A stretch of 64,000 nucleotides of DNA from positions 45,419-109,418 of the forward strand of contig JAFXQM010000009.1 of NCBI GenBank assembly GCA_017527075.1. The letters run 5' to 3'. The stretch is from Selenomonadaceae bacterium. Its GTDB lineage: Bacteria > Bacillota > Negativicutes > Selenomonadales > Selenomonadaceae. Positions 3,987 through 47,596 of this stretch are shown in pieces. The first letter of the stretch is position 1. Each line of letters starts with the position of its first letter. Made by a program: the position numbers and the translations under genes. The notes under the pieces were generated by a model, which did not search any database, was not told where the DNA came from, and worked only from the letters and a program-made list of their open reading frames with translations.

Positions 3987-4352
3987 ATGAACATATTCAA
4001 AGAAATTTTTACGACGGAGGGACGGCTCAATCGCAAAAAATTTTTCATGTATTACCTCGCGGTGACGATAATGGGAGCGACGGCGACGTTTGTGACCTCG
4101 TGCATGGCGACTCTTCTCACGGGCGACCCGAACGGCTCATTGGTCAAGATGATAACGGTGACGTGGGCGGTGCTGGCGACGGCGGGTGCTTGCATGCTCA
4201 TGGCGCGCCGCCTCCACGACCTGAACAAGAACGGCGGACTCTTTTTGGTCAGTTTCATTCCCGTCGTCGGGTTAATTTTCATGGCGTATCTTTTCTTCGC
4301 TGAGGGCACGGCGGGTTGGAACGATTACGGCAAAGACCCGCTGGCGCAATAA
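3987..4352 (+). CDS. DUF805 inner-membrane protein
   Basis: The GRLNRKKFF motif is followed by TM helices and RRLHDLNKNG. ATG at 3987 follows an AAGGGAG RBS, whereas the track start at 3951 is a TTG. Confidence 0.7.
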   Translation: MNIFKEIFTTEGRLNRKKFFMYYLAVTIMGATATFVTSCMATLLTGDPNGSLVKMITVTWAVLATAGACMLMARRLHDLNKNGGLFLVSFIPVVGLIFMAYLFFAEGTAGWNDYGKDPLAQ

Positions 4353-4374
4353 AAACTTTGGAGGAAAATTTTTC

Positions 4375-4743
4375 ATGGAGCTTTTGCAAAAAATTTACAC
4401 GACTCAAGGGCGGCTCAATCGTCTGCGCTTTTGGAAGTATTACGTGACTTGGCTGCTGATTTCCACGGTGATTGCTTTTGTTCTCGGATTCTTCCTCGGA
4501 TTTTTGACGATTGACCCGAAAAGTTTTTTGGTGACGGTGCCCGTGGGCATTTGGTCGTTCGTGGCGGGCGTCGGCACAATCATGATTAACATCCGCCGCC
4601 TGCATGATTTGGACAAGAGCGGCTGGTGGTTGCTGCTTGCGTTCGTTCCCATCGTCAATTTTATTTTCATGCTGTATGTTTGGCTCATGCCGGGCACGGT
4701 CGGTTGGAACAGATACGGAGCTGACCCGCTGCAAGATTATTAA
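4375..4743 (+). CDS. DUF805 inner-membrane protein (tandem paralog)
   Basis: QGRLNRLRFWKYY ... RRLHDLDKSGWW, with a GGAGG RBS upstream. Confidence 0.75.
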   Translation: MELLQKIYTTQGRLNRLRFWKYYVTWLLISTVIAFVLGFFLGFLTIDPKSFLVTVPVGIWSFVAGVGTIMINIRRLHDLDKSGWWLLLAFVPIVNFIFMLYVWLMPGTVGWNRYGADPLQDY

Positions 4744-4866
4744 TTTCTTCGCGCGCGCCGTGAAAAATTTTAACGCTGCTGCCGTGATTGAAGGATAAAA
4801 ATTTTTCGCGGCGAAATTTCTTTGAACAAAAATTTCATTACGCGTTGCAATTTGGAGGCGGATTTA

Positions 4867-5826
4867 ATGGCGAAAGATAAAGTGCGCAAAGGAGCCGAAA
4901 CCCTCGGCGACATGAAAGGCATTTTGCTTGAGACGGGCACGAACGAATTTGAAATTGTTGAGTTCAGCATCGGCGGCGTGAATTACGGGATAAACGTCGC
5001 CAAGGTTCGCGAGGTCATTCAGCGCACGCCCGTCACCGCAATGCCTCAGGCGCACCCCTACATCGACGGGCTGTTCACCCTGCGCGGCAAGGCAATTCCG
5101 CTCGTAAATCTTCCGCGTTGCTTGAACGTGACCAACGGCGACGAAGCCAAAAACATTATCGTCACGGAGATTAACAATTACGATATCGGGTTCCTCGTGG
5201 AGAACGTCTCGCGCATTCACAGAATTTCTTGGAAGGACATGGAGCCTTCGCCCGAAGTCGGAGACCAGAGCCGCGTCGTCGGCATTGTAAAAATGCCAAA
5301 CCGAATCGTCCTGCTCTTGGACTTTGAAACGATAATCGCGGAGATTAATCCCGAAATCAACGCGAAGCTGACGACGGTGGCGGACGCGACTGCCGACGTG
5401 CGCGCGATTCGTGCCGACGCTCATGTGGTCGTGGCGGAGGATTCGCCCATGCTGCGTGACTTGCTCGTTTCCACGCTGCATGATTCGGGCTACCGTTTCG
5501 TTCGCGACTTCGGCAACGGTCAAGACGCTTGGGAATATTTGCAGGGGCTGGCCGCGAAGGACGGAGACATTTCAAATCATCTGAGCATTATCGTTTCGGA
5601 TGTCGAAATGCCCAAGATGGACGGTCACAGACTTTTGAAACTCGTGCGCCACAACGACCGCTTGCGCAACGTGCCGTTCGTGCTGTTCTCGTCGCTCATC
5701 AGTGACGAAATGCGAATCAAGGGCGAGGAGCTCGGCGCGAGTGCTCAAATTTCCAAACCGGAAATCGGTCAGCTCATCGACCTGCTCGACAAATTTATCT
5801 TCGGCAGAAGACCGACAGGCGTTTGA
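4867..5826 (+). CDS. cheV: chemotaxis coupling protein CheV (CheW domain fused to a receiver domain)
   Basis: An N-terminal CheW-like region (EFEIVEFSIGGVNYGINVAKVREV) is followed by a REC domain (VVVAEDSPMLR...IIVSDVEMPKMDG). ATG at 4867 follows GGAGG. Confidence 0.8.
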   Translation: MAKDKVRKGAETLGDMKGILLETGTNEFEIVEFSIGGVNYGINVAKVREVIQRTPVTAMPQAHPYIDGLFTLRGKAIPLVNLPRCLNVTNGDEAKNIIVTEINNYDIGFLVENVSRIHRISWKDMEPSPEVGDQSRVVGIVKMPNRIVLLLDFETIIAEINPEINAKLTTVADATADVRAIRADAHVVVAEDSPMLRDLLVSTLHDSGYRFVRDFGNGQDAWEYLQGLAAKDGDISNHLSIIVSDVEMPKMDGHRLLKLVRHNDRLRNVPFVLFSSLISDEMRIKGEELGASAQISKPEIGQLIDLLDKFIFGRRPTGV

Positions 5827-5835
5827 AAAATTTTC

Positions 5836-5866
5836 AGCCCGCGCAACTTTTGGCGGGCTTTTTGTT
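5836..5866 (+). terminator. rho-independent terminator after cheV
   Basis: The stem is GCCCGC (5837-5842) / GCGGGC (5853-5858), followed by TTTTTG. Confidence 0.6.
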
Positions 5867-5890
5867 TGTTCAGAGAGGAGAAAAAATTTT

Positions 5891-6262
5891 ATGAGAAGTA
5901 TTCAAACGGAAAAGGCACCGGCGGCAGTCGGTCCGTACAGCCAGGCGATTAAAGTCAACGGGTTGCTTTACACGTCGGGGCAAATCGCAATCGACCCGGC
6001 CGTCGGAAAAATCGTCGCCACGACAATCGAAGGGCAAGCCGAGCAGTGTTGCAAAAATTTGGCGGCGATATTGGAGGCGGCGGGTTACGACTTCAGCGAA
6101 GTTTTCAAGACGACGTGCTTCCTGGCGGACATCGCCGACTTCAAAGCATTCAACGCGGTTTACGAAAAATATTTCGTCAGCAAACCCGCGCGCAGTTGCG
6201 TGGCCGTCAAAGAGTTGCCGCTGGGTGCTCTGTGCGAAATTGAATTGATTGCGGCGAAATGA
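5891..6262 (+). CDS. ridA: RidA/YjgF-family reactive-intermediate deaminase
   Basis: MRSIQTEKAPAAVGPYSQAIKVNGLLYTSGQIAIDP ... ARSCVAVKELPLGALCEIE is the canonical RidA sequence pattern. An RBS GAGAGGAG lies upstream. Confidence 0.9.
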   Translation: MRSIQTEKAPAAVGPYSQAIKVNGLLYTSGQIAIDPAVGKIVATTIEGQAEQCCKNLAAILEAAGYDFSEVFKTTCFLADIADFKAFNAVYEKYFVSKPARSCVAVKELPLGALCEIELIAAK

Positions 6263-7089
6263 TTCGGGCGGAGGATTTGCGTTACGTTTACAAGAGCGCG
6301 GCGGGCGATAAGGTTGCACTCGACGGTTTGAACTTCACGATTGACGACGGCGAGTTCGTCGCGATAATCGGCACGAACGGTTCGGGCAAATCGACGCTCG
6401 CCAAACATTTCAACGCCCTGCTCCTTCCGACGGGCGGAAAAATTTTCGTCGACGGCTTGGACACCGCACGCGAAGAAAATCTTTGGCGCGTCCGAGAAAA
6501 TGTCGGCATGGTTTTTCAAAATCCCGACAGCGAAATTGTCGCGGCGATTGTCGAGGACGACGTTGCGTTCGGCTTGGAGAATTTGGGCATCGCGCCCGAA
6601 AAAATTCGTGAGCGCGTGGACTTGGCACTCGACGCCGTGAACATGAGCGATTATAAAAAATTCGCGCCGAGCAAACTCAGCGGCGGGCAGAAGCAACGAA
6701 TCGCAATCGCGGGCGTCATCGCCATGCAAACAAAAATTATTGTCTTCGACGAACCGACAGCCATGCTCGACCCGCAAGGGCGTCGCGAAATTTTGGAGAT
6801 GGTCAAACGGCTCCACGCGCAGGGCAAGACGATAATTTACATCACGCACTTCATGGAGGAGGCGGCCGCCGCACAGAGAATTTTTTTGATGGAAGGCGGG
6901 CGAATCATCAGAGACGGGACGCCGCGAGAAATTTTTACCGACGCAAAGGAAATGAAACGCCTCGGCTTCAACTTACCCGTCGCCACGGAACTCGCCGAAC
7001 GTTTGCGCAAAAAAAAATTCAAGCTCCCGCAAAAAATTTTGACGGCCGAAGAACTCGCCGCCGCCCTGAAAAATTTTCTGACGGCGTAA
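6259..7089 (+). CDS. ecfA: energy-coupling-factor (ECF) transporter ATPase, CbiO/EcfA family
   Basis: Walker A GTNGSGKST, signature LSGGQKQRIAIAG and Walker B IIVFDEPTAMLD are present. The start overlaps the ridA stop (ATGA). Confidence 0.85.
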   Translation: MIRAEDLRYVYKSAAGDKVALDGLNFTIDDGEFVAIIGTNGSGKSTLAKHFNALLLPTGGKIFVDGLDTAREENLWRVRENVGMVFQNPDSEIVAAIVEDDVAFGLENLGIAPEKIRERVDLALDAVNMSDYKKFAPSKLSGGQKQRIAIAGVIAMQTKIIVFDEPTAMLDPQGRREILEMVKRLHAQGKTIIYITHFMEEAAAAQRIFLMEGGRIIRDGTPREIFTDAKEMKRLGFNLPVATELAERLRKKKFKLPQKILTAEELAAALKNFLTA

Positions 7090-11302: not shown

Positions 11303-13036
11303 ATGGCAAAACAACTCAGTGCCGAACAAAAAACTATCAGCCAAATTTTTAGTGAACCCAGAGTCAATTTCTTGATTCCCGATTATCAACGCCCGTATTC
11401 ATGGAAACGTGAGCAGTGTGAAACGCTTTGGAATGACATAAAAGATTTTGCCTTTCCAAACGATAATTGCGATGACTTCAGTGATTCAGATACTTATTTT
11501 CTTGGAACGATTCTGACTTACGATAATAACAGCTCACAATATGAAGTTGTCGATGGTCAACAACGACTTGTGACTTTCCTGCTCATGCTTCGCGCCTTTT
11601 ACGATGCGTTTGGAAAAATGCAAGATAGCAAGGCAAAAAATATTTTGACGACTCTTGAACAATGCATTTGGAACACTGATAAATTTAGAAATCCCGACAA
11701 ATCCAGTCTCAAAATTATTTCCGAAGTTATAACGGATGGCGACAAAGATGAATTAAAAAAAATTATTACAACGGGCAAAACGACCAAGGGCAATACGAGC
11801 AATTACGCGCAGAATTATCGCGACTTTCAAAAATGGATTAAAGAGTTTATAGACCGCACGCCAGACTATTTCTCGCTGCTTCCGTTTAGAATTTTGGATA
11901 ACTGCATTCTCTTGCCGATAAAAGTTGATTCTCAAGAAACCGCGTTACAAATTTTTACGACGCTCAACGACCGCGGCATGCCCCTCTCCGACGCTGACAT
12001 TCTTAAGGCAAAGTTCTACAAGTTTTATTCTGACAACGAAGAAAAAAAAGAAGAATTTGTTCAGGATTGGAAAACATTGGAAGAACTTTGCGAAAAAATT
12101 TTTCATCCCAAAAAAGGAATTTCCCCTCTCGAAGAATTGTTCACGACGTACATGTATTATCTCAAAGCCAAAAACGGTTCCAGAACTACGAGTTTTAAAA
12201 GCCTGCGGAAGTTTTATGAACAAGATAACTACAAGTACTTGCAGAACGAAACTTTTGAAGATTTAAAATCTCTTGCCGACTTTTGGAAAGATATTTATTC
12301 TCGTAATTATAATCGCTTTTCCGAAAGAGTTCTTCGGCAACTTCATATTCTCGAATACTCCCCTTATGCGATATGGCGGCACGTTGTCTCAGCTTATTTC
12401 TTGGTGTATCGTAAAAATATGACCAGGGCAGACGATAAAGCATTTTATAATTTTCTGAAGAAATTGACGGCTTTCGTTCTGGCAAATTCTATATACAGAC
12501 CCGGGGTTGGCTCCATTCGTTTACCTATACACAATGAAATCGTCAATCTCTATGAAAAAAAGCCTTTCGAGTTCAAAGGTTTCAAATTCGAATTAGAGAT
12601 AATGAGTACAAAGCGTAAAGAGTTGGTTTTTTCAAATCAACGTCTAATTACGCGGGCAATGTTGGCTTGGTGGATTTTTCGTGATGAAGAGCAGGAACTG
12701 CCACCGATTGGTATGAAACTCGAAATCGAACACATTTACGCCAGAAGCCAAAAAGAAAACTTAAGTGATGAGAGTATTGTCGAACTTCTTGGCAATAAAA
12801 GTTTGCTGGAAAGTAACATAAACATTCAAGCTTCTGATTATCGTTTTGCTGACAAGAAAAAATATTATCTGGGTCAAAAACGAAATAAGAAGAAACAAGC
12901 GGGAACAAAGGTTTTAGAACTGCGGCACCTCGCCGAAAATTATGATGACTTCTCAGAAGAGGATATCGTCAGGCGCAACGAAAAAATTTTTGCCGCGTTC
13001 ACTAACTTCCTTCGCGAGCAAAATTTACTTCTTTAA
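11303..13036 (+). CDS. DUF262 + DUF1524 (GmrSD-like) protein, putative type IV restriction / modified-DNA nuclease
   Basis: N-terminal ParB-like DUF262 motifs (FLIPDYQRPYSW, DGQQRL) and a C-terminal His-Me finger-like LEIEHIYARSQ...LGNKSLLESNIN. The sequence is visibly more AT-rich than its neighbours. Confidence 0.75.
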   Translation: MAKQLSAEQKTISQIFSEPRVNFLIPDYQRPYSWKREQCETLWNDIKDFAFPNDNCDDFSDSDTYFLGTILTYDNNSSQYEVVDGQQRLVTFLLMLRAFYDAFGKMQDSKAKNILTTLEQCIWNTDKFRNPDKSSLKIISEVITDGDKDELKKIITTGKTTKGNTSNYAQNYRDFQKWIKEFIDRTPDYFSLLPFRILDNCILLPIKVDSQETALQIFTTLNDRGMPLSDADILKAKFYKFYSDNEEKKEEFVQDWKTLEELCEKIFHPKKGISPLEELFTTYMYYLKAKNGSRTTSFKSLRKFYEQDNYKYLQNETFEDLKSLADFWKDIYSRNYNRFSERVLRQLHILEYSPYAIWRHVVSAYFLVYRKNMTRADDKAFYNFLKKLTAFVLANSIYRPGVGSIRLPIHNEIVNLYEKKPFEFKGFKFELEIMSTKRKELVFSNQRLITRAMLAWWIFRDEEQELPPIGMKLEIEHIYARSQKENLSDESIVELLGNKSLLESNINIQASDYRFADKKKYYLGQKRNKKKQAGTKVLELRHLAENYDDFSEEDIVRRNEKIFAAFTNFLREQNLLL

Positions 13037-31964: not shown

Positions 31965-32009
31965 GCCGCAAGTTGAAACCAGTTATCATTGAACAGGAGA
32001 GATTTTATT

Positions 32010-32681
32010 TTGGAAGTCGTTGAACTTTTCGCCAAGGGCGGACCGGTCATGTATCTGCTGCTCATCAGCTCGATTGCCGTCGCCGCCATTGGCATTGAAC
32101 GTTTCAGATTTTATCGATACGCCGGCCACGAGAGCGAAAATTTTTTGTCCCTGCTGAAGGAAAGTTTCAAGCGGCAAAATCTCGGCGAAGTTCTTGGCTT
32201 TTGCAACCGAGAAAATTCTTGCGTCGGGCTCGTGGCGGCGGCGGGCGTCAAGGCGGCTGTCGCGGGCGAGAACGTCGAACTCGCGCTCAACACTGCTTAC
32301 GATGAGGAGGCAATGAGACTTCGCGCGCGACTGAATTATCTTTCCATGATTGTCACGCTCGCGCCGCTGCTCGGCTTGCTCGGCACAATCAGCGGCATGA
32401 TTGAGTCGTTCAATATCTTCAGCATTCAGGCGGGTCAGCCGCTTGCGATAACCGGCGGCATCGGCGAGGCATTAATCGCGACGGCGACGGGTCTTTGCGT
32501 TTCAATCTTCGCGCTCATCGTTCACACTTACTTCGCCCAAAAGCTCGACGAAAATTTAACCGCGCTCGACAAAACGGTCAACATCGTGCTCGCTTATGCA
32601 AACGCCGACGGAAAATCTGTCGCCAACGAAAATTCTGAAGCTCCGCAAGAGACGGAAAAGTCGGAAGGATTTTTATTATGA
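32010..32681 (+). CDS. exbB: MotA/TolQ/ExbB-family proton channel
   Basis: LFAKGGPVMYLLLISSIAVAAIGIERF ... LAPLLGLLGTISGMIESF ... GIGEALIATATGLCVSIFALI. TTG at 32010 lies 9 nt after GGAGAG. Confidence 0.8.
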   Translation: MEVVELFAKGGPVMYLLLISSIAVAAIGIERFRFYRYAGHESENFLSLLKESFKRQNLGEVLGFCNRENSCVGLVAAAGVKAAVAGENVELALNTAYDEEAMRLRARLNYLSMIVTLAPLLGLLGTISGMIESFNIFSIQAGQPLAITGGIGEALIATATGLCVSIFALIVHTYFAQKLDENLTALDKTVNIVLAYANADGKSVANENSEAPQETEKSEGFLL

Positions 32682-33091
32682 GCCGCCGCCGTGACTTCCG
32701 CGAGAAAACTCAGCCGCTCGTCATGATTATCCCGATGATTGACATAATGCTCTTCCTGCTCGTGTTCTTCATGATAAGCACGATTTACATGGTGCAGACC
32801 AACACCCTGCCCGTGAGCCTGCCGCAGTCGTCGACCGCCAAGCAAGAGACGCGCCCGAATGTCGTGCCGATAACCGTGCTCGAAACCGGCGACGTGCTCT
32901 TCGACAAGGACACCGTGCCCAACCAACAGCTCGCCGAAAAAGTTCACAAAGCTCTGGAGCAGGACAAGGATACAATCTTCGTGCTGCGCGGCGATAAGGC
33001 GGCTCGTTATGAAAGCGTCGTGGCTGTGCTCGACCTGCTGAAAAAATCGGGGGCGTATCGCGTGTCGATTGCCACGGAGATGAAAAAGTGA
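32678..33091 (+). CDS. exbD: biopolymer transport protein ExbD/TolR
   Basis: A single N-terminal TM helix (IIPMIDIMLFLLVFFMI) is followed by ...FVLRGDKAARYESVVAVLDLLKKSG. Confidence 0.85.
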   Translation: MSRRRDFREKTQPLVMIIPMIDIMLFLLVFFMISTIYMVQTNTLPVSLPQSSTAKQETRPNVVPITVLETGDVLFDKDTVPNQQLAEKVHKALEQDKDTIFVLRGDKAARYESVVAVLDLLKKSGAYRVSIATEMKK

Positions 33092-33807
33092 TGGGTTACT
33101 CAACTTATTGGCGGACGACAATTTTCGCGGCGATTGCTTTCCACTTCCTGACGGCGTTGGGATTTTCATACGTCTTGCCGCACCTCATGCCCGAACCGAA
33201 AATCGAAGACGTGGCGGAGTTTGAATGGGTTGACGTGGATTTGCTCCCGCCCGACGTGACAGTCATCGAAGCCGAGGCAATTCCTTCTGAAACCGTGCAA
33301 GAAACTTTGCCGACGTTCAACGCGCGAGATTTGTTCGTGCCGGACTTAAGCGTGCCCGAACCGATAATCGCCGAGGAAACTCCACCGCCGCCCGAAGTCA
33401 AACCGCTTGAGCCGCCCAAACCTCCTCCGCCGCCGCAAGTCGTAACCAACGAACAAGAGGCGCAACAAAAAGTTCAGAGCGAGGAACCGCCCAAGGAAGT
33501 CGTCGTCGTGCCGGCAAATGCAAAACAGCAGATGGGTCAGCCGCCCGTCACTATTACGGAAGTTTATCCCGAAAAAGGCAGCGGGCTCGGTTATCGCGGT
33601 TACGTTTCAATCGCCGCGACAATCGGCAAGGACGGCAAGGTCAAGGCGACAAAAGTCATGCGCACTTCGGGCAGATATTTCGTCGACGAGATTGCGCGCA
33701 AGGCCGCCATGCAGTGGACGTTCAAGCCCGCGCTCGACCAAGAGGGCAAGCCCATGGTCTGCGACAAAATTATTACCTTTGACTTCAAAAAATTTTCCGA
33801 GGCTTAA
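33088..33807 (+). CDS. tonB: energy transducer TonB
   Basis: N-terminal TM helix, a Pro-rich spacer (ETPPPPEVKPLEPPKPPPPPQ) and a C-terminal TonB domain (GYVSIAATIGKDGKV...AAMQWTFKPALDQEGKP). Confidence 0.78.
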   Translation: MMGYSTYWRTTIFAAIAFHFLTALGFSYVLPHLMPEPKIEDVAEFEWVDVDLLPPDVTVIEAEAIPSETVQETLPTFNARDLFVPDLSVPEPIIAEETPPPPEVKPLEPPKPPPPPQVVTNEQEAQQKVQSEEPPKEVVVVPANAKQQMGQPPVTITEVYPEKGSGLGYRGYVSIAATIGKDGKVKATKVMRTSGRYFVDEIARKAAMQWTFKPALDQEGKPMVCDKIITFDFKKFSEA

Positions 33808-39931: not shown

Positions 39932-40585
39932 TTGGCTCTGCTTGAATTGAAAGACGTTTCGATGGTTTACAACGGGAAAGTGCGCGCGCTCGACGGAATA
40001 AATTTTTCCGTGGAGAAGGGCGAGTGGGTTGCGATCATGGGTCCTTCGGGCTCCGGCAAAACCACGCTCATGAACATAATCGGCTGCATGGATAAGGCAA
40101 CGGGCGGCGAAGTAATTTTGGACGGCATCGACTTGAGTGACGTGGACGGCACTCAGCTCACCGAGATTCGCCGCGAAAAAATCGGCATGGTCTTCCAGCA
40201 ATTTCATCTCGTGCCGTACTTGACCGCCGTGGAAAATATCATGGTCGCGCAATATTATCACGGGCTGCCCGACTTAAGCGACGCGATGACCGAACTCAAA
40301 CGCGTGGGCTTGGAGGACAGGGCGAATCATTTGCCGAGCCAACTCAGCGGCGGCGAACAGCAACGCGTTTGCATTGCGCGTGCGCTGATAAATTATCCCG
40401 TGCTGATTCTCGCCGACGAACCGACCGGCAACTTGGACGAGGCCAATCAAAATCTTGTCATGAAAATTTTTCACGAGCTGCACGCCGAAGGTCACACGAT
40501 TATCACCGTCACTCACTCGCCCGACGTCGGCCGCGAAGCTCAGCGGTGTATCGTCCTCGAACACGGGAGGATTAAGGATAGTTAG
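39932..40585 (+). CDS. ABC transporter ATP-binding protein (LolD/MacB ATPase type)
   Basis: GPSGSGKTTL, LSGGEQQRVCIARAL, ILADEPTGNLD. Confidence 0.9.
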   Translation: MALLELKDVSMVYNGKVRALDGINFSVEKGEWVAIMGPSGSGKTTLMNIIGCMDKATGGEVILDGIDLSDVDGTQLTEIRREKIGMVFQQFHLVPYLTAVENIMVAQYYHGLPDLSDAMTELKRVGLEDRANHLPSQLSGGEQQRVCIARALINYPVLILADEPTGNLDEANQNLVMKIFHELHAEGHTIITVTHSPDVGREAQRCIVLEHGRIKDS

Positions 40586-40615
40586 GAGTTAGGAGTTAGG
40601 AGTTAGGAGTTAGGA
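40581..40615 (+). repeat. five tandem GTTAGGA heptamers forming the intercistronic spacer
   Basis: GTTAGGAGTTAGGAGTTAGGAGTTAGGAGTTAGGA-ATG. The first TAG is the ATPase stop codon, and the array ends at the next start codon. Confidence 0.9.
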
Positions 40616-41068
40616 ATGAGGAATTTTTTTATTGCAATTCTTGTGGCGGGGATTTTAATCAGCGGGTGCGGCGGCGAAGAAAAATCTCCCGCTCCGAAGC
40701 CCGCGCAAAACAAAATCGACTTGTCCAACGCCAAGGACGGCACGTACACGATTGAAAGCTCGCGCGACGAAAAACTCGGCAACAGCACCTTGACGCTGAC
40801 GATTAAGGACAAAAAAATTGTCGCCGCCTCTTTCACGGGTTACGATTTGTTCGGCAACGTCAAGGACGAAAATTACGGCGCGCTGACCGGCAAAGATTCC
40901 GCCGATTACAAAAAGGCGCAGGTCGCCGTCGACGCGATTAAAGTTTATCCCGCGCAGCTCGTCGAGACTCAAGACCTCGGCAAGGTCGACGCGATTTCGG
41001 GCGCGAGTATTTCTTACGGGCAATTCGTCGAGACAACCCGCCGCGCAGTCGAAGAAGCCTCCAAGTGA
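40616..41068 (+). CDS. FMN-binding domain lipoprotein
   Basis: Lipobox ILISGCGG and the FMN_bind motif DAISGASISYGQF. Confidence 0.75.
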   Translation: MRNFFIAILVAGILISGCGGEEKSPAPKPAQNKIDLSNAKDGTYTIESSRDEKLGNSTLTLTIKDKKIVAASFTGYDLFGNVKDENYGALTGKDSADYKKAQVAVDAIKVYPAQLVETQDLGKVDAISGASISYGQFVETTRRAVEEASK

Positions 41069-41388
41069 CCCGCAACGATTTAATTTTGGTCGCGGTGCTG
41101 ATAATTTTTTCGCTCGTGCCGCCGATGAATTTTGATTCGAAAAAAAAAATCGCCGTCGTGAAAGTTGGCGGCGAGATTGTTCGCGAGCTTGACCTGTCGG
41201 AGAAAAAAATTTTCACGGTCGAAGCAAGCGGCGGCAAAAATATTTTGGAAGTAAAGGGCGGGGCAGTTCGCGTGGTCGAAGCGGATTGCCCCGATAAAAT
41301 TTGCGTGCGGCGCGGCGCGATAAAAAATCTCGGCGAGACGATTGCTTGCGTGCCTCACAAAATTTTGATTGAGGTCGTCGGCGAGTAA
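41065..41388 (+). CDS. NusG domain II-containing (DUF1312) protein
   Basis: N-terminal TM helix, then ...ILEVKGGAVRVVEADCPDKICVRRGAIKNLGETIACVPHKILIEV. Confidence 0.7.
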   Translation: MTRNDLILVAVLIIFSLVPPMNFDSKKKIAVVKVGGEIVRELDLSEKKIFTVEASGGKNILEVKGGAVRVVEADCPDKICVRRGAIKNLGETIACVPHKILIEVVGE

Positions 41389-41389
41389 A

Positions 41390-43282
41390 TCAATCCAGCC
41401 GCGTCTTGGTGATTTCGTCCCAGCGGTCGCCGAAATATTCCGCGAGCCGCCATTCGATTTGCCGATGATAAGTGACGGACGTGACGGGCGCTGACGAATC
41501 TTGAAAAGCGTACCTGCCGATTTTCCTCAGCGCGGCGGGCAAGACCAAACTTTTCAGCCCGCAAAACTTGAACGCCTCGTCGCCAATCTCCGTCAGGCTT
41601 TCGGGGAAGACGACGTGCGTAATTTGCTTGCAGTTGTAAAATTTTCTGTCCTCAATGCGAGTGAGCCCTTCGCGCAAGACGAGCACACCGCCGCGAGGAT
41701 TTTTTTGTTCGGAGTCGCGATAAAGTTCCTCCAAAATGTTTTGAGCTTTTTCATCGCCGCAAGCCGCCAAAGCCTTCAACTTCAAAATCAAATCCAAATC
41801 GCCGCGCTTAACCGCATTGAACTTTTCTTGCGCGGAAATTTTTTCGCCCAAAATTTTTTCCGCGTCGTCAAAGAAATTTTTTATCGGGTCGTCGGCGGAT
41901 TCGGAAGCAAAAAATTTTTCGCCGTAAAGTTTGACGAGCTCACCGACGGCGAAAGTGTCATTGGCCGTTGTCGCCTCGAAAAGTTCAATCGCCTGCGCGC
42001 GAAGTTTTTCGGCGTCGACGTATCCGACGAGCCGCGCCAACTCGATGAACTTGCTGTCGGCAAAAATTTTTTCGTCGCCCCGCGAAGAAATGCTGCGGAA
42101 AATTTTCTCCGCCGTGGAAAGATTTTTTTGCACGCCCAGACCTTTGGCGTAAATCAATCCGACGCAAATTTTTTCGTTCACGTCGTCGGTCGCGCGCCGC
42201 AGACAAGTTTCAAAAAGTTGATTGGCTCTGCCGAGTTGCCGAAGTTTGCTCAGGCAAAGATTCGCCAGCTCAAATTGCGCGATGAAATCGTTCCGAAGTT
42301 TTTCATAAACATTTCGCGCCCTGTGATAAAAATTTTTCGCGGCGGCTTCGTCGTGGTTCGCGGCGCGGATGTCGCCCAAAGTTTTCAACGCGTCGGCATA
42401 AGCTCTGTTCTCCGTCCGCTTGACGAACATGCCGCCCTCCACCGCGTGAATTTGCGCATGGCAATTTTTGCACACGACCATCAAATTGCCGCGGCGGTTG
42501 TCGCCCTGATTGTGATTCTTGTGATGAATTTCAAGTTCGGCGGGCAAAAATTTTTTGCGGCAGACTTCGCAGGTGAAGTCGACGTTTTTTTTCAGCGAGA
42601 ATTTTTTTTGCGCGGAGAGGACGTAAATTTTTTTTACGGCGGAAACGTCCGTGAACTCGACGGGCGGGAAGTCGGATTCATTTGCCTTGGCACTCAGCAA
42701 AAACTCCGCGATGTCGAAGTCATCAACGATTCGCTGACGCATTGCGCGGTCGCCGCCCTTCCAAAGTTCTTTGCCCGCTCCGCAGTATCGCCGAAAATTT
42801 TTCCAGTTCAGCTCGCGCAAACAATGCTGACAAACTTTCAGCCGCCGATAAACATTTTGCTCGCGCGGCTCGCCGTCGACGAACAAGTTCACCAAAAAAT
42901 TTCCGCGCGTTTCATACGTCATGACGTATCGGGATTCGTAACGATTTTTCTTTTGCGAGTCGCGCAAGTGTTGGCAGAAGCACAGGTGGAAGCGGTTATA
43001 ATTTTCTGCCGCGTATCTTTGCCGTGAAAGATATTGGTCGCGGATGTAAAGGATGACGGCGTGCTCCTTGTAAGCGAAGGGGACGAGCGGCGCGAATTTT
43101 TTCCCAAGCTCTTCCAAAATTTTTTGGTCGAACTCTTTGCCCTCCGAAAAATCTTTTCGTTCGGCGGCGGTCAGGGTCGGCAGGGAAAAATTTTCCGCCG
43201 CCAATTTTATTTGGCTGTCGCTTATGCCCATCGCCGCGAAAATTTTTTGGAACGGCTCCAAAATTTTTTCAGCGTTGCTCAT
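41390..43282 (-). CDS. HNH nuclease fused to helical (Sel1-like) repeats and a C-terminal BspA-type leucine-rich repeat; ZorE-like effector candidate
   Basis: The HNH core is FTCEVCRKKFLPAELEIHHKNHNQGDNRRGNLMVVCKNCHAQIH. A Sel1-like unit reads GLIYAKGLGVQKNLSTAEKIF. The LRR_5-like end reads FPESLTEIGDEAFKFCGLKSLVLPAALRKIGRYAF. The start overlaps the upstream gene. Confidence 0.6.
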   Translation of the reverse strand: MSNAEKILEPFQKIFAAMGISDSQIKLAAENFSLPTLTAAERKDFSEGKEFDQKILEELGKKFAPLVPFAYKEHAVILYIRDQYLSRQRYAAENYNRFHLCFCQHLRDSQKKNRYESRYVMTYETRGNFLVNLFVDGEPREQNVYRRLKVCQHCLRELNWKNFRRYCGAGKELWKGGDRAMRQRIVDDFDIAEFLLSAKANESDFPPVEFTDVSAVKKIYVLSAQKKFSLKKNVDFTCEVCRKKFLPAELEIHHKNHNQGDNRRGNLMVVCKNCHAQIHAVEGGMFVKRTENRAYADALKTLGDIRAANHDEAAAKNFYHRARNVYEKLRNDFIAQFELANLCLSKLRQLGRANQLFETCLRRATDDVNEKICVGLIYAKGLGVQKNLSTAEKIFRSISSRGDEKIFADSKFIELARLVGYVDAEKLRAQAIELFEATTANDTFAVGELVKLYGEKFFASESADDPIKNFFDDAEKILGEKISAQEKFNAVKRGDLDLILKLKALAACGDEKAQNILEELYRDSEQKNPRGGVLVLREGLTRIEDRKFYNCKQITHVVFPESLTEIGDEAFKFCGLKSLVLPAALRKIGRYAFQDSSAPVTSVTYHRQIEWRLAEYFGDRWDEITKTRLD

Positions 43283-43926
43283 TGATTTTGTTCAGCTCCT
43301 TCTCCGCGTTCCGCCGAATGCTGATTTCCACACAGCGCGAGGCCGTCGCATTCCGAGTGTCCGCCTTGCTGAAGGACGCGCCGTTCGCCCTGAGTTTGTC
43401 GACGAGCCACTGCCGCTTTTCGGGCGTCTGCAAGGCGTTGAGCGTGAAGACGTTGCAAGACGTTGAAGGCTCTGTCCTGCGAAAGTTTCATGTTGTAAAA
43501 GTAAGCCTCGTTGGAATTCACGTCGCCGCTCCACTCCGGGGAGGCGTTGCCCTCGATTCGAACCTCGACAATCTCGGCGGAATATTTTTCCAAGACTTTC
43601 ATGTAACGCGGAAAAAATTCTGCGAGCACCGCTTGGAAATTCGGATTGACGGTGCTGTCGCCCGCCGCGAAAAAAACTGACGGCGACACAAAAATTATCC
43701 GCAAGTCGTCCTCCTCAATCTTCGCGCCGAGCCGCGCCATGTCTTCGGGCTTGAACTCGTCGATTAAGTCTTGGTGAATTTGATTTTTGATTTGTTCATA
43801 ACGATTGACGGTTTCTTTCATCTGAAAAAGGAAGCCCATGCACACGAACAGAAAAATCATCATCAAGCCGGTCATCATGTCGGAAATGGATTGCCAAATG
43901 CCGTCGTCGTTGCGTTTGAAAATCAT
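43279..43926 (-). CDS. MotB/ExbD-plug + OmpA-like peptidoglycan-binding protein (ZorB-like), C-terminus frameshifted
   Basis: The TM helix carries the conserved Asp (WQSISDMMTGLMMIFLFV). The OmpA-like region reads FFAAGDSTVNPNF...VRIEGNASPEW...MKLSQDRAFNV. After about 43466 the plausible continuation (..LRANGASFSKADTRNATASRCVEISIRR..) lies in another frame. Confidence 0.6.
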   Translation of the reverse strand: MIFKRNDDGIWQSISDMMTGLMMIFLFVCMGFLFQMKETVNRYEQIKNQIHQDLIDEFKPEDMARLGAKIEEDDLRIIFVSPSVFFAAGDSTVNPNFQAVLAEFFPRYMKVLEKYSAEIVEVRIEGNASPEWSGDVNSNEAYFYNMKLSQDRAFNVLQRLHAQRLADARKAAVARRQTQGERRVLQQGGHSECDGLALCGNQHSAERGEGAEQNQ

Positions 43927-45323
43927 CCTGCCCGCCGCCTTTCGAGGAGCAGCTTATCAAGCTCCACGATTCTTGAGATAAAGATTTGGTAATTGCTGAC
44001 CAGCTTTCCGCTTATTTCTGCCAAAGCCGCCGCGAGATTTTGTATCGCCTTGCCCGATTGCTCGTCGGTATTTTTCGCGACGGTCTCAAACAGCCGGTGC
44101 AATGTGCTCAAAGATTCTTTCGTCTCCTTGTCCAAGTCCGCCTTGAAGCTCGCGATTGTCTTTCGGATAACTTCCATTGACTTCGCGCTCGTGTCGTTGA
44201 AGTCTTTCAGGTAATGTTGCTTGTCGAGTGAAACGCTTTGCGCGACGGAATTTATTTTCTTGACTTCGGCGGCGAAATTTTTTGCAAGCGAATCGATGTT
44301 GCCCGGATGATTTCTCAGGACGGAAAGATTTTTATTCAAGGCGTCTTCGCTGAACCTGCCAAAATTTTCCGTGAGGGTTTGCATTTGGTTGATACTCTCT
44401 TCCGCCTGCGAAATTACTTTGGAAAGTTGAGCGGTCGCGGCGTACAGTTCTTGTTGCACGGAAATATTTGCCGCGCTCGTGTCAGAAAAAATTTGCAGAG
44501 AATTTTGGAGCGCGCCAAGAATTTCGCGGTTAAAAGTTTCGTTGATGACTTTGAGCTCGGCGGTCGTCAGCTCGACGATATTTTTGTACTCGCGCTGCCA
44601 CGTGACCACTTCGCGGACGGCGGCGTTGAGTTCCTTGAAATTTTCGCCGAATTGCGTTTGGAGTTGGACGTTGAGATTTTTGATTGACTCGTTGAGTGCC
44701 GCGATAAAATTTTCGCTGAAATTTTTCGCGACGTCCCGCATGAAGCTGTCGAAGGAATTTTTCATGGCGTCGAGGCGGGCGGCTTGGCTCTGCCCGAAGG
44801 CTTCGATACTCCCCGCGAGGGTCGCGCTCAAGTTCGATAAACTTTCGGATTGCGCGTTCATGGCGGCGGAAAGATTTTTCATGTCGGGCGCGAAAGTTTC
44901 CATTGCCGTGACGAGCCTGCCCAACTCCCGCTGAAGATTTAAATTGTCGTTGGCAGCGTTGCCGGTCTCAATCGCCGCCAAAATTTTTTCCAACGTCCCT
45001 TTGACTGAATCGCTGTCGGCGTGGTCAATATCCCGCTGATAAAATTTTATCGCGAGCCCCGCGCCCATTCCGACAATCGAAGTCACGAAGGCCAACCTCA
45101 TGCCGTCGAGAAAAGCGTTTATGCTTTCGACCATGTTGGCGGCGTTCGTGTCGAAGTTGTAAAGCCCGTAAGCAATTCCGATGAAAGTGAACAGCACGCC
45201 GACCGTCACGACGTGTTGGGCTCCGCTGTCGAGAATTTTTTTCTGCGCGTTCCGATAAGAATTAAACGCAATGCCGCCGCAAACGCCCGCGCAGACAAAA
45301 ATTAAAATCCATGATAAATTCAA
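43923..45323 (-). CDS. MotA/ExbB-like 3-TM protein with a ~370-aa coiled-coil tail (ZorA-like)
   Basis: The TM helices fall at about residues 5-22, 40-58 and 78-96 (TVGVLFTFIGIAYGL, AFVTSIVGMGAGLAIKF). The rest is a long heptad-rich, low-complexity helical tail. The TTG at 45323 is better spaced from GGGAGG than the track start at 45329. The stop overlaps the next start (ATGA). Confidence 0.55.
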   Translation of the reverse strand: MNLSWILIFVCAGVCGGIAFNSYRNAQKKILDSGAQHVVTVGVLFTFIGIAYGLYNFDTNAANMVESINAFLDGMRLAFVTSIVGMGAGLAIKFYQRDIDHADSDSVKGTLEKILAAIETGNAANDNLNLQRELGRLVTAMETFAPDMKNLSAAMNAQSESLSNLSATLAGSIEAFGQSQAARLDAMKNSFDSFMRDVAKNFSENFIAALNESIKNLNVQLQTQFGENFKELNAAVREVVTWQREYKNIVELTTAELKVINETFNREILGALQNSLQIFSDTSAANISVQQELYAATAQLSKVISQAEESINQMQTLTENFGRFSEDALNKNLSVLRNHPGNIDSLAKNFAAEVKKINSVAQSVSLDKQHYLKDFNDTSAKSMEVIRKTIASFKADLDKETKESLSTLHRLFETVAKNTDEQSGKAIQNLAAALAEISGKLVSNYQIFISRIVELDKLLLERRRAG

Positions 45324-45384
45324 AGCCAAGCCTCCCGAAAAATTTTTGCGGCGATTATATCACAGCGGCGACGAAATTTCTTGG

Positions 45385-45909
45385 ATGATTGGAAAGTTGG
45401 TGATTGATTTGCGACGGCTGACGGCGAACGCGATTTTGATTTCCGTGTCGCTGATTTTATTTTTCGTGGAGGGATTGTTGCCGCCGCTCATGCTGCCGCC
45501 CGGCGCGAAGTTCGGCTTGGCAAACGTGGTGACGTTGGTCGCGCTGTACCGGCTGACGGAGGTCGACGCGCTGATAATTTTGTCGGCGAGAATTTTTTTG
45601 GCGGGAGTGTTCGCGGGTTCGCCGACGGTGATTTTGTTCAGCGCGAGCGGCGGGCTGATGAGTTTGGCGGCGATGATTTTGCTCAAGCGCGCGGAAAAAT
45701 TTTCAGTGGTCGGAGTGAGTGCGGCGGGCGGATTCTTCCACAACCTCGGACAAATTTTCGCGGCGATGATTTTCATGGGCAGCGAGAAAATTTTTTTCTA
45801 CCTGCCGATTCTTGGAGTGTGCGGAATTTTTGTCGGCGGGCTGGTCGGTTTGCTCGCGAAGGAAATTTTCCGACGGCTCCCGCCTAATCGCGGCGACGGG
45901 ACAAATTGA
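45385..45909 (+). CDS. Gx transporter family protein (heptaprenyl diphosphate synthase component I-like membrane protein)
   Basis: LPPGAKFGLANVVTLVALY plus further TM helices. The ATG at 45385 is internal to ORF 45271..45909, and the start is uncertain. Confidence 0.65.
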   Translation: MIGKLVIDLRRLTANAILISVSLILFFVEGLLPPLMLPPGAKFGLANVVTLVALYRLTEVDALIILSARIFLAGVFAGSPTVILFSASGGLMSLAAMILLKRAEKFSVVGVSAAGGFFHNLGQIFAAMIFMGSEKIFFYLPILGVCGIFVGGLVGLLAKEIFRRLPPNRGDGTN

Positions 45910-46041
45910 AATTATGCTCTCCCAATCCTCCGCGCGGCTCTCGTCAAAAAAAATTCTGCCGTGCTCGTAAATCACTCCGCCGAACTCAGATTCACTCACG
46001 CACGCCAGGCACCGCACGCAAATTTTTTCGTCGTAAATCAT
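45703..46041 (-). CDS. small single-cluster [4Fe-4S] ferredoxin-like protein with an odd C-terminal extension
   Basis: MIYDEKICVRCLACVSESEFGG...ESIISICPVAAI has the CxxCxxC...CP pattern. The frame stays open for another ~59 codons antisense to the 3' end of the Gx gene. Confidence 0.4.
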   Translation of the reverse strand: MIYDEKICVRCLACVSESEFGGVIYEHGRIFFDESRAEDWESIISICPVAAIRREPSENFLREQTDQPADKNSAHSKNRQVEKNFLAAHENHRRENLSEVVEESARRTHSDH

Positions 46042-46074
46042 TTGCACACTCAGCTCCCGAATGAAAAGTTTCCT

Positions 46075-46104
46075 TGACAAAAACTTGAACAAAGCTTTAT
46101 CATA
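46075..46104 (+). promoter_or_regulatory. sigma-70-like promoter for the condensation-domain gene
   Basis: TTGACA (46075-46080), an 18-nt spacer, then TATCAT (46099-46104). Confidence 0.4.
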
Positions 46105-46151
46105 AGCAACAGTGGGAAAAAATTTTTTCGTCGTGTAAGGAGGCAAAGCTC

Positions 46152-47390
46152 ATGAAATATTATCCCTTGCGCCCGATGCAAAGATGGTTGGTCGACACGC
46201 ACTTCAACAAGGCAAAGTCGACGATGATGAATATCGGCGGACTGTTCAAGCTCTCCGCGTCGATTGACATGAATCACTTGGCGGACGCGATTAACTTCGT
46301 CTTGGAAAAGTATGACATCTTCCGTTGCAGATTTATCTTTCACCCCGAGACCAGCGACTTGTGCCAGATTTTCGACGGCGCGATAGAAAAAGTTTTTCTC
46401 GAACGCCTCAGCGAAAAAGAATTCAATCGGCGCATGGAAAGTTTGCGCGAGCCGTATTATCTGATTAATCACCCGCTCTATCGGATTTACCTGATGGAAA
46501 CGCCGCAAGCCAAATATCTTTACGTGGATTTCTATCACGCGATAATGGACGGCGTGGCGAGTTCGTATCTGTTCGCCAAAGCGATAGACGCTGCTTATCG
46601 CGGACGCACCAAGAGTGCGGCTCCGAGTTACGCCGAGTACGTCGAAGAAGAAGCGAAGATTCCGCCCGAAGAACTTGCCGAAGGTCACGAGTACTGGAAG
46701 AAAATGCTTGCGCCCTTCGACGAGAAAAAACATTTGCCGCCCGTGAAGGTCGAAGGCGTCGCGGCATGGACTCAGGGCAAGCTGGATTACTACTTCAAAA
46801 ATTTCACGGAAGAATTTTTCCGCACGACACGAATCAACGAGAACAATTTCTTCCTCGGCGCGTGCATGTTGACGCTGGCGAAGCTGACCGGCACCAAAGA
46901 ATCAATCATGAGCTGGATACACAACGGGCGCACGAACATGCGCGAGCGTCGGCTGATGGGTTTGATGCTTGAGCAGTATCCGTGCGCGTGGGATTTCCAC
47001 CAAGACATGACAATCGAAGAATTCCTCAACCGACTCGAAGGACAGAATCAAATCGGCATGAGATATCGCAAGAGCCTCGACCTCGTTTACAACGAAGGAC
47101 TCGAAGACGATTGCGTGAGTTTCATTTTCCAGAAGATGATGCACGACGATATCATTTTGGCCGACACGCCCGCCCAAACGATTTACCTGCCGCCGAACGA
47201 AATTTCCGCCGTGGAAAATGCTCTCGACATTGAAGTTGAAGCGGACGAGACGGGAATGTACATCGTGGCTCTCGATTACGACGCGAGCCGTTACTCCGAA
47301 GAGGAAATGATTAACTTCGCCAAGACAATGAACGAAATTTTAATCACCATGCGCGACACGAACAAAAAATTCTCCGACATCCTCGGCTGA
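46152..47390 (+). CDS. stand-alone NRPS-type condensation (C) domain protein
   Basis: 412 aa with an N-terminus YPLRPMQRWLV. The active-site motif is YHAIMDG (46533-46553), a variant of HHxxxDG that retains the second (catalytic) His. No A, T or TE domain is nearby. Confidence 0.75.
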   Translation: MKYYPLRPMQRWLVDTHFNKAKSTMMNIGGLFKLSASIDMNHLADAINFVLEKYDIFRCRFIFHPETSDLCQIFDGAIEKVFLERLSEKEFNRRMESLREPYYLINHPLYRIYLMETPQAKYLYVDFYHAIMDGVASSYLFAKAIDAAYRGRTKSAAPSYAEYVEEEAKIPPEELAEGHEYWKKMLAPFDEKKHLPPVKVEGVAAWTQGKLDYYFKNFTEEFFRTTRINENNFFLGACMLTLAKLTGTKESIMSWIHNGRTNMRERRLMGLMLEQYPCAWDFHQDMTIEEFLNRLEGQNQIGMRYRKSLDLVYNEGLEDDCVSFIFQKMMHDDIILADTPAQTIYLPPNEISAVENALDIEVEADETGMYIVALDYDASRYSEEEMINFAKTMNEILITMRDTNKKFSDILG

Positions 47391-47410
47391 AAATTTTGGA
47401 GGCGATGACG

Positions 47411-47596
47411 ATGGCAAACAAATTCGACGACAAAATTTCCAAGAACGAAACGCTCAGCGAAGAACAACTCGACGAAGTGACGGGCGGCTTGGAAAATCCG
47501 CGCATTCCGAGCTTCATGATGATTTCTCAACGCTCCGAAGCTTTTCGCTCGACCGACAACCCGAACACTTGGCTGAACGACCGAAAATATTTCTGA
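47411..47596 (+). CDS. 61-aa peptide with a double-glycine leader (bacteriocin/RiPP-precursor-like)
   Basis: MANKFDDKISKNETLSEEQLDEVTGG|LENPRIPSFMMISQRSEAFRSTDNPNTWLNDRKYF. LSEEQLDEVTGG fits the LSxxELxxIxGG consensus. GGAGG (47398-47402) lies 8 nt before the ATG at 47411. Confidence 0.55.
   Translation: MANKFDDKISKNETLSEEQLDEVTGGLENPRIPSFMMISQRSEAFRSTDNPNTWLNDRKYF

Follow-up and report, generated by a model that had tools for sequence, protein, structure and literature searches.

A distant type II Zorya operon in rumen Selenomonadaceae, with a repeat module on ZorE and a probably inactivating deletion in zorB

A three-gene cassette of the type II Zorya family

The window analysed here is a stretch of 64,000 nucleotides from a Selenomonadaceae bacterium (assembly GCA_017527075.1, contig JAFXQM010000009.1, positions 45,419 to 109,418). 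Within it lies a cassette of three adjoining, co-oriented genes on the minus strand, zorA-zorB-zorE, which an earlier note, made from the letters of the DNA, had proposed as a candidate Zorya defence system. The three open reading frames (ORFs) were confirmed at the positions given in that note, namely 43923-45329, 43279-43926 (215 aa) and 41390-43282 (630 aa). Since a GGAGG site (45335-45331) lies 7 nt 5' of the TTG codon at 45323, this codon is the likely start of zorA, as the note had placed it, and the gene-caller calls on public contigs concur; read from there the protein has 466 residues, and the ORFs run from 45323 to 43923, 43926 to 43279 and 43282 to 41390. Table 1 collects the features of the cassette, together with the condition of the related loci discussed below.

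Table 1. Features of the cassette and its flanks, and condition of related loci (rows headed by an L number use the positions of that locus; dN/dS values are against the loci in brackets; LRR, leucine-rich repeat; SLR, Sel1-like repeat)
Feature	Position	Strand	Basis or remark
NusG_II-domain gene	41065-41388	+	Pfam NusG_II 4.5e-30; convergent with zorE, stop codons 1 nt apart
zorE, BspA-type LRR (LRR_5) and cap, residues 526-630 plus stop	41390-41707	-	Pfam LRR_5 1.3e-14, residues 536-597; dN/dS 0.42 (L011), 0.25 (L018), 0.18 (L012)
zorE, Sel1-like/TPR-like helical solenoid, residues 293-525	41708-42406	-	AlphaFold2 (AF2) model, Foldseek/phmmer SLR matches; dN/dS 0.43 (L011), 0.36 (L018), 0.60 (L012)
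zorE, nuclease core, residues 1-292	42407-43282	-	DUF8245 region then HNH; PADLOC, Pfam, PF26739, BLASTP; dN/dS 0.37 (L011), 0.21 (L018), 0.21 (L012)
zorB, out-of-frame 3' remnant	43269-43453	-	Encodes ...VFTLNALQTPEKRQWLVDKLRANGASFSKADTRNATASR198CVEISIRRNAEKELNKINEQR and stop
zorB (ZorB2-like) as now read, 215 aa	43279-43926	-	PADLOC ZorB2, Pfam OmpA, alignment
zorA (ZorA2-like), 466 aa	43923-45323	-	PADLOC, 8vvi_F, E. coli ZorA2, hydropathy, spacing of the ribosome-binding site
zorA, tail junction D185/A186	44766-44771	-	53-aa segment absent here (alignment)
Putative promoter element, extended -10 TGaTATAAT	45354-45362	-	5' of zorA; read by eye
Hpre_diP_synt_I (Gx-transporter-type) membrane protein gene	45385-45909	+	Pfam 4.9e-37; divergent from zorA
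Window cassette			zorB frameshift
L008	8700-9100		zorE frameshift in LRR
L009	5000-8451		zorA truncated, zorB nonsense, zorE split
L010	2362-5650		No zorA, zorE broken
L012-L014	1340-1586 (L012)		zorA without the first two membrane segments; zorE full length
L015			zorA/zorB/zorE 525/223/768 aa; intact-looking
L016			zorA/zorB/zorE 639/219/888 aa; intact-looking
L018			zorA/zorB/zorE 565/219/642 aa; intact-looking
L019			zorA/zorB/zorE 574/217/832 aa; intact-looking
L020/L021	6001-8074 (L020), 3993-6546 (L021)		Split four-gene form; intact-looking
L022	2022-4270		Split four-gene form; zorA split, LRR gene nonsense
L023	2661-4461		Split four-gene form; intact-looking

Profile searches placed all three proteins in type II Zorya. 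The PADLOC model for ZorA2 (PDLC00637) matched the first gene product at 2.7e-49 over profile positions 17-415 of 420, the model for ZorB2 (PDLC00641) matched the second at 4.7e-53 over profile positions 11-179 of 238 only, and the ZorE2 model matched residues 69-277 of the third at 1e-34. The PADLOC models of types I and III were far weaker, the best values being 2.7e-10 for ZorA1 and 7.3e-07 for ZorA3. The best NCBIfam matches of the three proteins were likewise ZorA2, ZorB2 and ZorE, and because their scores fall far under the equivalog cut-offs the cassette is to be regarded, on these comparisons, as a distant member of type II Zorya. In a phmmer search of the PDB, ZorA matched chain 8vvi_F, the type II ZorA of Sulfuricurvum kujiense, at 2e-21, and ZorB with its frame repaired matched 8vvi_A at 1.2e-32; BLASTP found annotated E. 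coli ZorA2 at 8e-21 and ZorE at 8e-20, and all three proteins align to the annotated zorA2-zorB2-zorE operon of an E. coli plasmid (NZ_CP127005). The type II ZorA/ZorB/ZorE architecture recognised in the earlier note is therefore borne out by the PADLOC, NCBIfam, 8VVI and E. coli operon matches. Its alternative suggestion of a distinct MotAB-driven system is not, and what distinguishes this cassette is only a lineage-specific variant of ZorE.

The type II system of E. coli (ATCC 8739 type; on NZ_CP127005 ZorA2 has 550, ZorB2 235 and ZorE 367 residues) resembles the window cassette in gene order and strand, in a ZorA with a three-segment membrane head of about 100 residues and a long helical tail, in a ZorB with an OmpA-like domain whose D16, S129 and R198 correspond to D24, S143 and R215, and in a ZorE that combines DUF8245 with HNH (29% identity over 223 residues). 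The proteins are only 24-40% identical, however, and the window differs further in that an Asn stands in place of His141 of E. coli ZorB, in that its zorB is frameshifted, and in that its host is a diderm Firmicute (Negativicutes) and not a proteobacterium. Both subunits of the S. kujiense ZorA5B2 complex (PDB 8VVI) are also homologous to those of the window, with the same layout of a short ZorA head and a tail. The ZorA and ZorB of 8VVI have 378 and 277 residues, respectively, whereas in the window the ZorA tail is about 90 residues longer and ZorB is truncated by the frameshift. Type I Zorya (ZorABCD) shares a homologous ZorAB core, but the ZorA1 and ZorB1 models match the window proteins more weakly and ZorA1 has about 700 residues; neither ZorC or ZorD nor the type III genes ZorF or ZorG were found adjoining the cassette.

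Hydropathy analysis of ZorA shows three transmembrane (TM) segments within about residues 1-95 (45039-45323), followed by a helical tail of about 370 residues that is poor in Pro and rich in Ala, Leu, Ser, Asn and Glu, and so confirms the three-TM head and long tail that had been read from the translation. The same reading called this ZorA minimal and much shorter than known examples, a description that does not hold. It was drawn from a comparison with type I, whereas type II ZorA proteins have 378 residues in 8VVI and 550 in E. coli, and the PADLOC profiles span 420-590 positions; the tail of S. kujiense ZorA was modelled over residues 110-378 (PMC11890865). A head of about 100 residues with a tail of about 370 is what is normal for type II. 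Among the full-length copies of its own clade, that of the window is the shortest, the others having 525-639 residues. In six pairs the length of the ZorA tail tends to rise with that of ZorE, but the trend is not monotonic and the pairs are too few for a claim.

The frameshift in zorB

ZorB begins with the expected MotB-type TM helix, SISD16MMTGLMMIF, in which Asp16 (codon 43879-43881) is invariant in the alignment and equivalent to D24 of E. coli; the helix and its conserved Asp had been noticed before and are confirmed. The OmpA-like domain that had been assigned to this gene is also present, but it is in frame only as far as Q158, and the protein as it is now read scores 25.4 bits with the Pfam OmpA model, under the cut-off of 27.2. 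A 2-nt deletion between 43454 and 43453 has turned CAGTAC into CAAC. At this position three relatives, L008, L010 and L011, the last being the closest in this alignment with a ZorE 78% identical, all read TTGCAGTACGTC, and the window reads TTGCA--ACGTC. The frame is correct through ...AFNVLQ158, so that the predicted product consists of 158 native and 57 out-of-frame residues, and a three-frame translation recovers a typical OmpA C-terminus (...VFTLNALQTPEKRQWLVDKLRANGASFSKA...ASRCVEISIRR...) from the +1 frame after the lesion. As a result the peptidoglycan-binding domain has lost its last 61 native residues to out-of-frame sequence. The earlier note had hinted at damage in speaking of gene 2 as needing repair; the lesion itself, a frameshift after residue 158, emerged from the present alignment. 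We considered whether the shift might instead have arisen as a 10-bp near-tandem duplication (CAACGTCTTG|CAACGTCTTC), but the alignment with L011, L008 and L010 shows a 2-nt deletion in CAG-TAC, and the 9-bp repeat is coincidental.

The lesion also bears on the proposal that the three genes are translationally coupled through ATGA overlaps. Both overlaps are there, at 43926-43923 between zorA and zorB and at 43282-43279 between zorB and zorE, but the second is, to judge from the aligned frames, a by-product of the lesion, because the ancestral zorB frame stops at 43271-43269. It would thus overlap zorE by 14 nt, as in relatives, where the overlap is 11-20 nt.

The position of the shift may be compared with what is established for E. 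coli ZorB2. In the alignment N127/S129 correspond to H141/S143. The TM helix, Asp16, N127-x-S129 and R152 are encoded ahead of the shift, whereas R198 lies downstream and is encoded in the abandoned frame only. Each of the substitutions R215A, H141A, S143A and R230A in E. coli ZorB2 abolishes peptidoglycan binding and defence, and the ion-coupling Asp is required for defence (PMC11890865). Because both R198 and the strands that complete the fold come after the shift, we infer that the canonical ZorAB sensor is most likely non-functional in this genome, where zorB is a pseudogene. A complete OmpA-like domain with the C-terminal Arg is lacking in the window and is present in L008, L010, L012, L015, L016, L018 and L019.

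The same deletion occurs in seven separately assembled contigs (L001-L007, from two ENA assemblies and five Logan runs), which show 0 mismatches over the 3.9-kb cassette and are therefore clonal. We treat the deletion as real, but within a single clonal strain. Lesions are not confined to this strain. About half of the 12 distinct loci, the window included, bear them, and in different genes, although some of those in metagenome-assembled genomes (MAGs) may be assembly errors. This distribution suggests that the related loci are frequently eroded.

The repeat module of ZorE

The nuclease core of ZorE appears to be well preserved. Its DUF8245 region (precomputed PF26739) contains H99-x-C101-x-C103 and C151-x2-C154, and the HNH domain, matched by Pfam at residues 238-279, contains C238-x2-C241, H253-H254, N266 and C271-x2-C274-H275. 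H253/H254, N266 and the Zn-ligand sites are invariant or nearly so (at least 90%) within the clade. The core is followed by a tail that the AF2 model resolves into a solenoid of helical hairpins over residues 287-524 (predicted confidence, pLDDT, 80-95), followed by LRR strands and finally a helix-strand cap. The cap is conserved as Y-H-x3-E-x2-L-x2-YFG-x-RW, the LRR_5 tail matches the LRR proteins 4fs7, 4gt6 and 6mlx of the PDB, and Pfam matches to Sel1 were found in homologues. The earlier description of gene 3 as an HNH nuclease joined to Sel1-like repeats and a BspA-type LRR is thus confirmed by the motifs, Pfam HNH, LRR_5 and the modelled solenoid. No ZorE chain was found in the PDB by sequence search, and Foldseek with the ZorE model returned from the PDB only generic LRR and SLR proteins (E at least 1.4e-3), the core being modelled too poorly for such a search. 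Antisense to zorE there is a 508-aa ORF (41501-43027, plus strand), which we take to be a shadow ORF of codon bias.

To place the tail within the family, ZorE residues 1-292 were searched exhaustively against representatives, since a word-indexed search with the core had given only 14 proteins. At E < 1e-10 the search found 303 representative clusters. The matches listed have a median length of 284 aa, and only 8 of 141 have 450 aa or more. The suspicion that SLR and LRR modules are atypical for ZorE is upheld, the present protein having 630 residues; its tail of 340 residues compares with a C-terminal region of about 100 in E. coli ZorE. BLASTP homologues of residues 293-630 are restricted to one small clade (P0002-P0024), and all three of its members that were found in the species-level genome collection are rumen Selenomonadaceae or Selenomonadales MAGs. 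Other long ZorE proteins (representatives P0041, P0042 and P0033) resemble that of the window in that helical repeats follow the core, but their Sel1/TPR (tetratricopeptide) tails have no BLASTP similarity to the window tail and no LRR. They are apparently independent accretions, and because these tails are unrelated, accretion of repeats at the ZorE C-terminus is, as far as these sequences indicate, recurrent. ZorE has been described as a DUF8245 and HNHc core with variable C-termini (PMC13192584, a 2026 preprint), and the proteins of that study provide a precedent for variable accretion at the C-terminus of this core. There the extension or pocket is nuclease-like, whereas the window tail is a non-catalytic scaffold of Sel1-like repeats and LRR_5, and the window contains no Druantia. 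We found no paper in the open-access literature that links Zorya to LRR or Sel1 modules.

Comparison of synonymous and nonsynonymous change (Table 1) shows that the SLR is the fastest-evolving region of ZorE, with dN/dS of 0.36-0.60, while the LRR and cap are constrained like the nuclease core. The repeat tail is under purifying selection and is not junk. The number of LRR repeats varies among relatives from about 2-3 to about 8. A joining of TPR- or LRR-type repeats to a nuclease effector is familiar from the Avs/STAND defence proteins, which resemble the nucleotide-binding leucine-rich repeat (NLR) receptors. The likeness, which extends to the variable repeat number, is one of functional analogy only, for ZorE has no NTPase (STAND) domain and its nuclease belongs to a membrane-motor system.

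How this module relates to the nuclease can be judged from sister clades in which the two are separate. In three clusters defined at 90% identity (L020/L021, L023 and L022), zorE ends at a shared alignment position, ...EEFED, and 12-20 nt later a new ORF begins with a ribosome-binding site of its own (GAGGTGAT or GGGGTGAT). What remains of the helical region is encoded by this ORF, together with the LRR_5 repeats and the conserved cap. Such a fused and split "Rosetta-stone" pattern points to a repeat module that is a partner of the nuclease but separable from it, and we infer from it that the SLR-LRR module may serve as a protein-protein interaction adaptor or regulator, docking on the ZorA tail or gating the HNH domain. 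More boldly, the Sel1-like/LRR module could be counted as a true fourth part of the system in a Zorya II subtype particular to rumen Selenomonadaceae, where it would act as an adaptor or receptor, either linking the nickase with the ZorA tail or making direct contact with a phage protein; this we put forward only tentatively, and doubt it more than we believe it.

Residency, alternative readings and significance

The setting of the cassette speaks to its age in this lineage. In L012-L014 a contiguous FMN_bind-NusG_II-Hpre_diP_synt_I operon lies 3' of ExbB-ExbD-TonB with Zorya just downstream, so that there, as in L009, the cassette is found past the end of an intact operon. In the window (41065-45909, compared with L012 3293-6398) it instead stands between the NusG_II and Hpre_diP_synt_I genes, which it separates; the locus is the same as in these relatives, but the cassette is on the opposite side of the Gx gene. 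The Hpre_diP_synt_I gene of the window is now preceded by 3.9 kb of Zorya DNA in antisense orientation. The GC content of the cassette equals that of its flanks. It also shares the oligonucleotide signature of the host, since the palindromic octamer AAAATTTT, which occurs 155 times in the window against 12.4 ± 3.4 expected from dinucleotide-preserving shuffles (12-fold), has 16 copies within it (e.g. 41638-45048). This octamer is spread evenly through coding regions on both strands, as a genome-wide signature. No tRNA gene lies within 34 kb of the cassette, no repeat pair flanks it and no integrase-like gene was seen among the flanking genes scanned. A recent horizontal insertion or mobile island was rejected on these grounds, and the cassette is, by these signs, a long-resident element.

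Taken as a whole, the results make it probable that the cassette is a long-resident type II Zorya operon of rumen Selenomonadaceae, with an SLR-LRR adaptor on ZorE, that was recently inactivated through the 2-nt deletion in zorB. Zorya is built around a 5:2 motor for which peptidoglycan binding and the ZorA tail are required, and ZorE is a nickase brought to the membrane by ZorAB (PMC11890865). By analogy with this published type II work, in the intact relatives ZorA and ZorB would form a 5:2 ion-driven inner-membrane motor in which ZorB Asp16 would carry the ion. The OmpA-like domain of ZorB would anchor to peptidoglycan upon perturbation of the envelope by a phage, and the pentameric ZorA tail would relay this signal and recruit ZorE, the HNH nickase, to damage DNA at the site of infection. 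In this lineage the SLR-LRR module would dock ZorE on the ZorA tail or gate the nuclease. The copy in the window is probably inactive, since the deletion replaces 61 residues including the equivalent of an essential Arg and has most likely killed the ZorAB sensor.

Several observations weigh against parts of this account. The NCBIfam bit scores are well below the equivalog cut-offs, at 88.9 against 700 for ZorA2, 122.1 against 400 for ZorB2 and 70.4 against 600 for ZorE. AF2 modelled the ZorE core with little confidence, pLDDT being below 50 at residues 102-219, and the evidence for the role of the SLR-LRR module consists of domain type, selection and the fused and split pattern. Missing from the tail of the window ZorA is a 53-aa segment (...KNSxxLLxETKxYQQQSLAND...) that all the clade relatives share and that is flanked by AMK...AMK in the nearest of them, L018; the gap may represent either a further lesion, in frame, or natural variation in tail length. 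Finally, zorA and zorE are still full-length ORFs, which could reflect either tolerance of the lesion or a use of ZorE independent of ZorAB.

Two alternatives concern the identity of the genes and the reality of the lesion. The first two genes could in principle be a housekeeping energiser of the MotAB, ExbBD or TolQR type with no part in defence, and the HNH gene an unrelated neighbour, given that ZorAB is distantly homologous to MotAB and ExbBD and that gene 2 has weak matches to the MotB, TssL and YiaD models (1e-3 to 1e-6; NCBIfam MotB, at about 1e-3, is far under its cut-off). Gene 1, however, has no match to Pfam MotA_ExbB, a model to which the genuine ExbB of the window (31989-32681) scores 1.6e-27, no alternative comes within tens of orders of magnitude of the Zorya II models, and the three genes travel jointly in no fewer than eight further loci whose flanks differ. 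The genuine ExbB-ExbD-TonB set at 31989-33807, in which ExbD and TonB_C adjoin ExbB, confirms the earlier distinction between the cassette pair and the housekeeping genes. Once profile searches and a survey of other genomes had been run, genes 1 and 2 fell into Zorya II and not into the flagellar-stator or Tol/Ton families, and homologues of gene 3 were found together with genes 1 and 2 elsewhere. The energiser explanation is effectively refuted by these profile and synteny results, and we give it next to no credence. It is also very improbable that the frameshift is an error of sequencing or assembly and the system fully intact. The window and all matching contigs are indeed short-read metagenome assemblies, and the MAG relatives also show frameshifts that may be erroneous, but the identical deletion, free of mismatches, stands in seven separately assembled contigs and its context, GCAGTACG, is no homopolymer.

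The other two alternatives accept the lesion and differ on what is left. The cassette might still be an active Zorya II, with a truncated ZorB that assembles with ZorA and senses infection. In keeping with this, neither zorA nor zorE is interrupted, zorB in its shifted frame remains coupled to zorE through the ATGA overlap at its end, the TM helix, Asp16, N127-x-S129 and R152 precede the shift, and in contigs drawn from several samples the lesion is fixed. These contigs are clonal, though, so that fixation says little about selection. With the shift the OmpA-like fold loses its last helix and strands as well as R198, the equivalent change R215A in E. coli by itself abolishes peptidoglycan binding and defence (PMC11890865), and every intact relative retains a ZorB of 217-230 residues; continued activity therefore seems to us improbable. 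Alternatively, ZorAB could be dead and ZorE with its repeats kept as an independent nuclease, co-opted by another defence pathway or triggered through the repeats. ZorE does act without ZorAB in synergy with Druantia III (PMC13192584), its catalytic and Zn-binding residues are intact here, the repeat module is under purifying selection, and in L012-L014 zorE is full length even though zorA has lost TM1-TM2. A Druantia III partner was nevertheless rejected, as no DruE-sized or other large helicase ORF exists in the window, nor was another partner seen there; the sole other defence gene seen, encoding a GmrSD protein, is 28 kb away. Moreover, zorE is itself broken in L008, L009 and L010, and so is not specially preserved, and E. 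coli ZorE alone gives no DNA targeting at native expression (PMC11890865). We consider this use of ZorE unlikely and favour the inactivated type II operon.

Some further features of the window may be recorded. The second defence gene encodes a GmrSD-type type IV restriction enzyme of 577 aa (11303-13036, plus strand; Pfam GmrSD_N 3.1e-39 and GmrSD_C) and sits in a low-GC patch (0.41-0.44 at 11-14 kb); in L011 a GmrSD_N/HNH gene directly adjoins zorE. Next to zorA, in 45360-46146 (minus strand; L001 3236-3923), the gene callers of the public records chose two minus-strand ORFs of 114 and 108 aa, but the plus-strand ORF at 45385-45909 is clearly Hpre_diP_synt_I and the public calls are therefore likely a mis-annotation. 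The promoter-like element ahead of zorA was not listed by the consensus promoter scan, which demands a -35 element, and the promoter and terminator scans gave counts no higher than expected from shuffles and are uninformative. A 66-aa ORF at 47396-47596 (plus strand) has a motif like that of a double-glycine leader (MEAMTMANKFDDKISKNETLSEEQLDEVTGG|LENPRIP...) and lies directly 3' of a gene for a stand-alone Condensation-domain protein (46152-47390, plus strand; Pfam 5.3e-39), so that this region may be a locus for a bacteriocin or for the precursor of a ribosomally synthesized and post-translationally modified peptide. Between genes for an ABC ATPase and FMN_bind a heptamer, (AGTTAGG)n, is repeated in tandem about 6 times (40580-40628), and each unit holds an AGGAG-like ribosome-binding motif.

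As a Zorya II locus the cassette is detectable by tools of the PADLOC type and adds little by itself. The clade to which its effector belongs is nevertheless currently invisible in annotated genomes, because standard annotation gives ZorE only as a leucine-rich repeat protein, the NCBI record reading "leucine-rich repeat protein [Selenomonadaceae bacterium]". The lesions in the window and its relatives provide a clear example of the decay of a defence system in a lineage of gut anaerobes, and a warning that censuses of defence systems based on hidden Markov models count decayed copies as functional. For the question of how ZorE is brought in and activated by ZorAB, an interaction module joined to ZorE gives something concrete to test, be it docking on the ZorA tail or binding to phage proteins. 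The occurrence of the ZorE nickase in three forms, alone, with a separate LRR gene and fused to the repeats, constitutes a natural experiment. If the Sel1-like/LRR module is indeed a component of the system, NLR-like recognition of a ligand would have been grafted onto a membrane-motor defence system, and these loci would be a natural starting point for explaining the recruitment and activation of ZorE by ZorAB.

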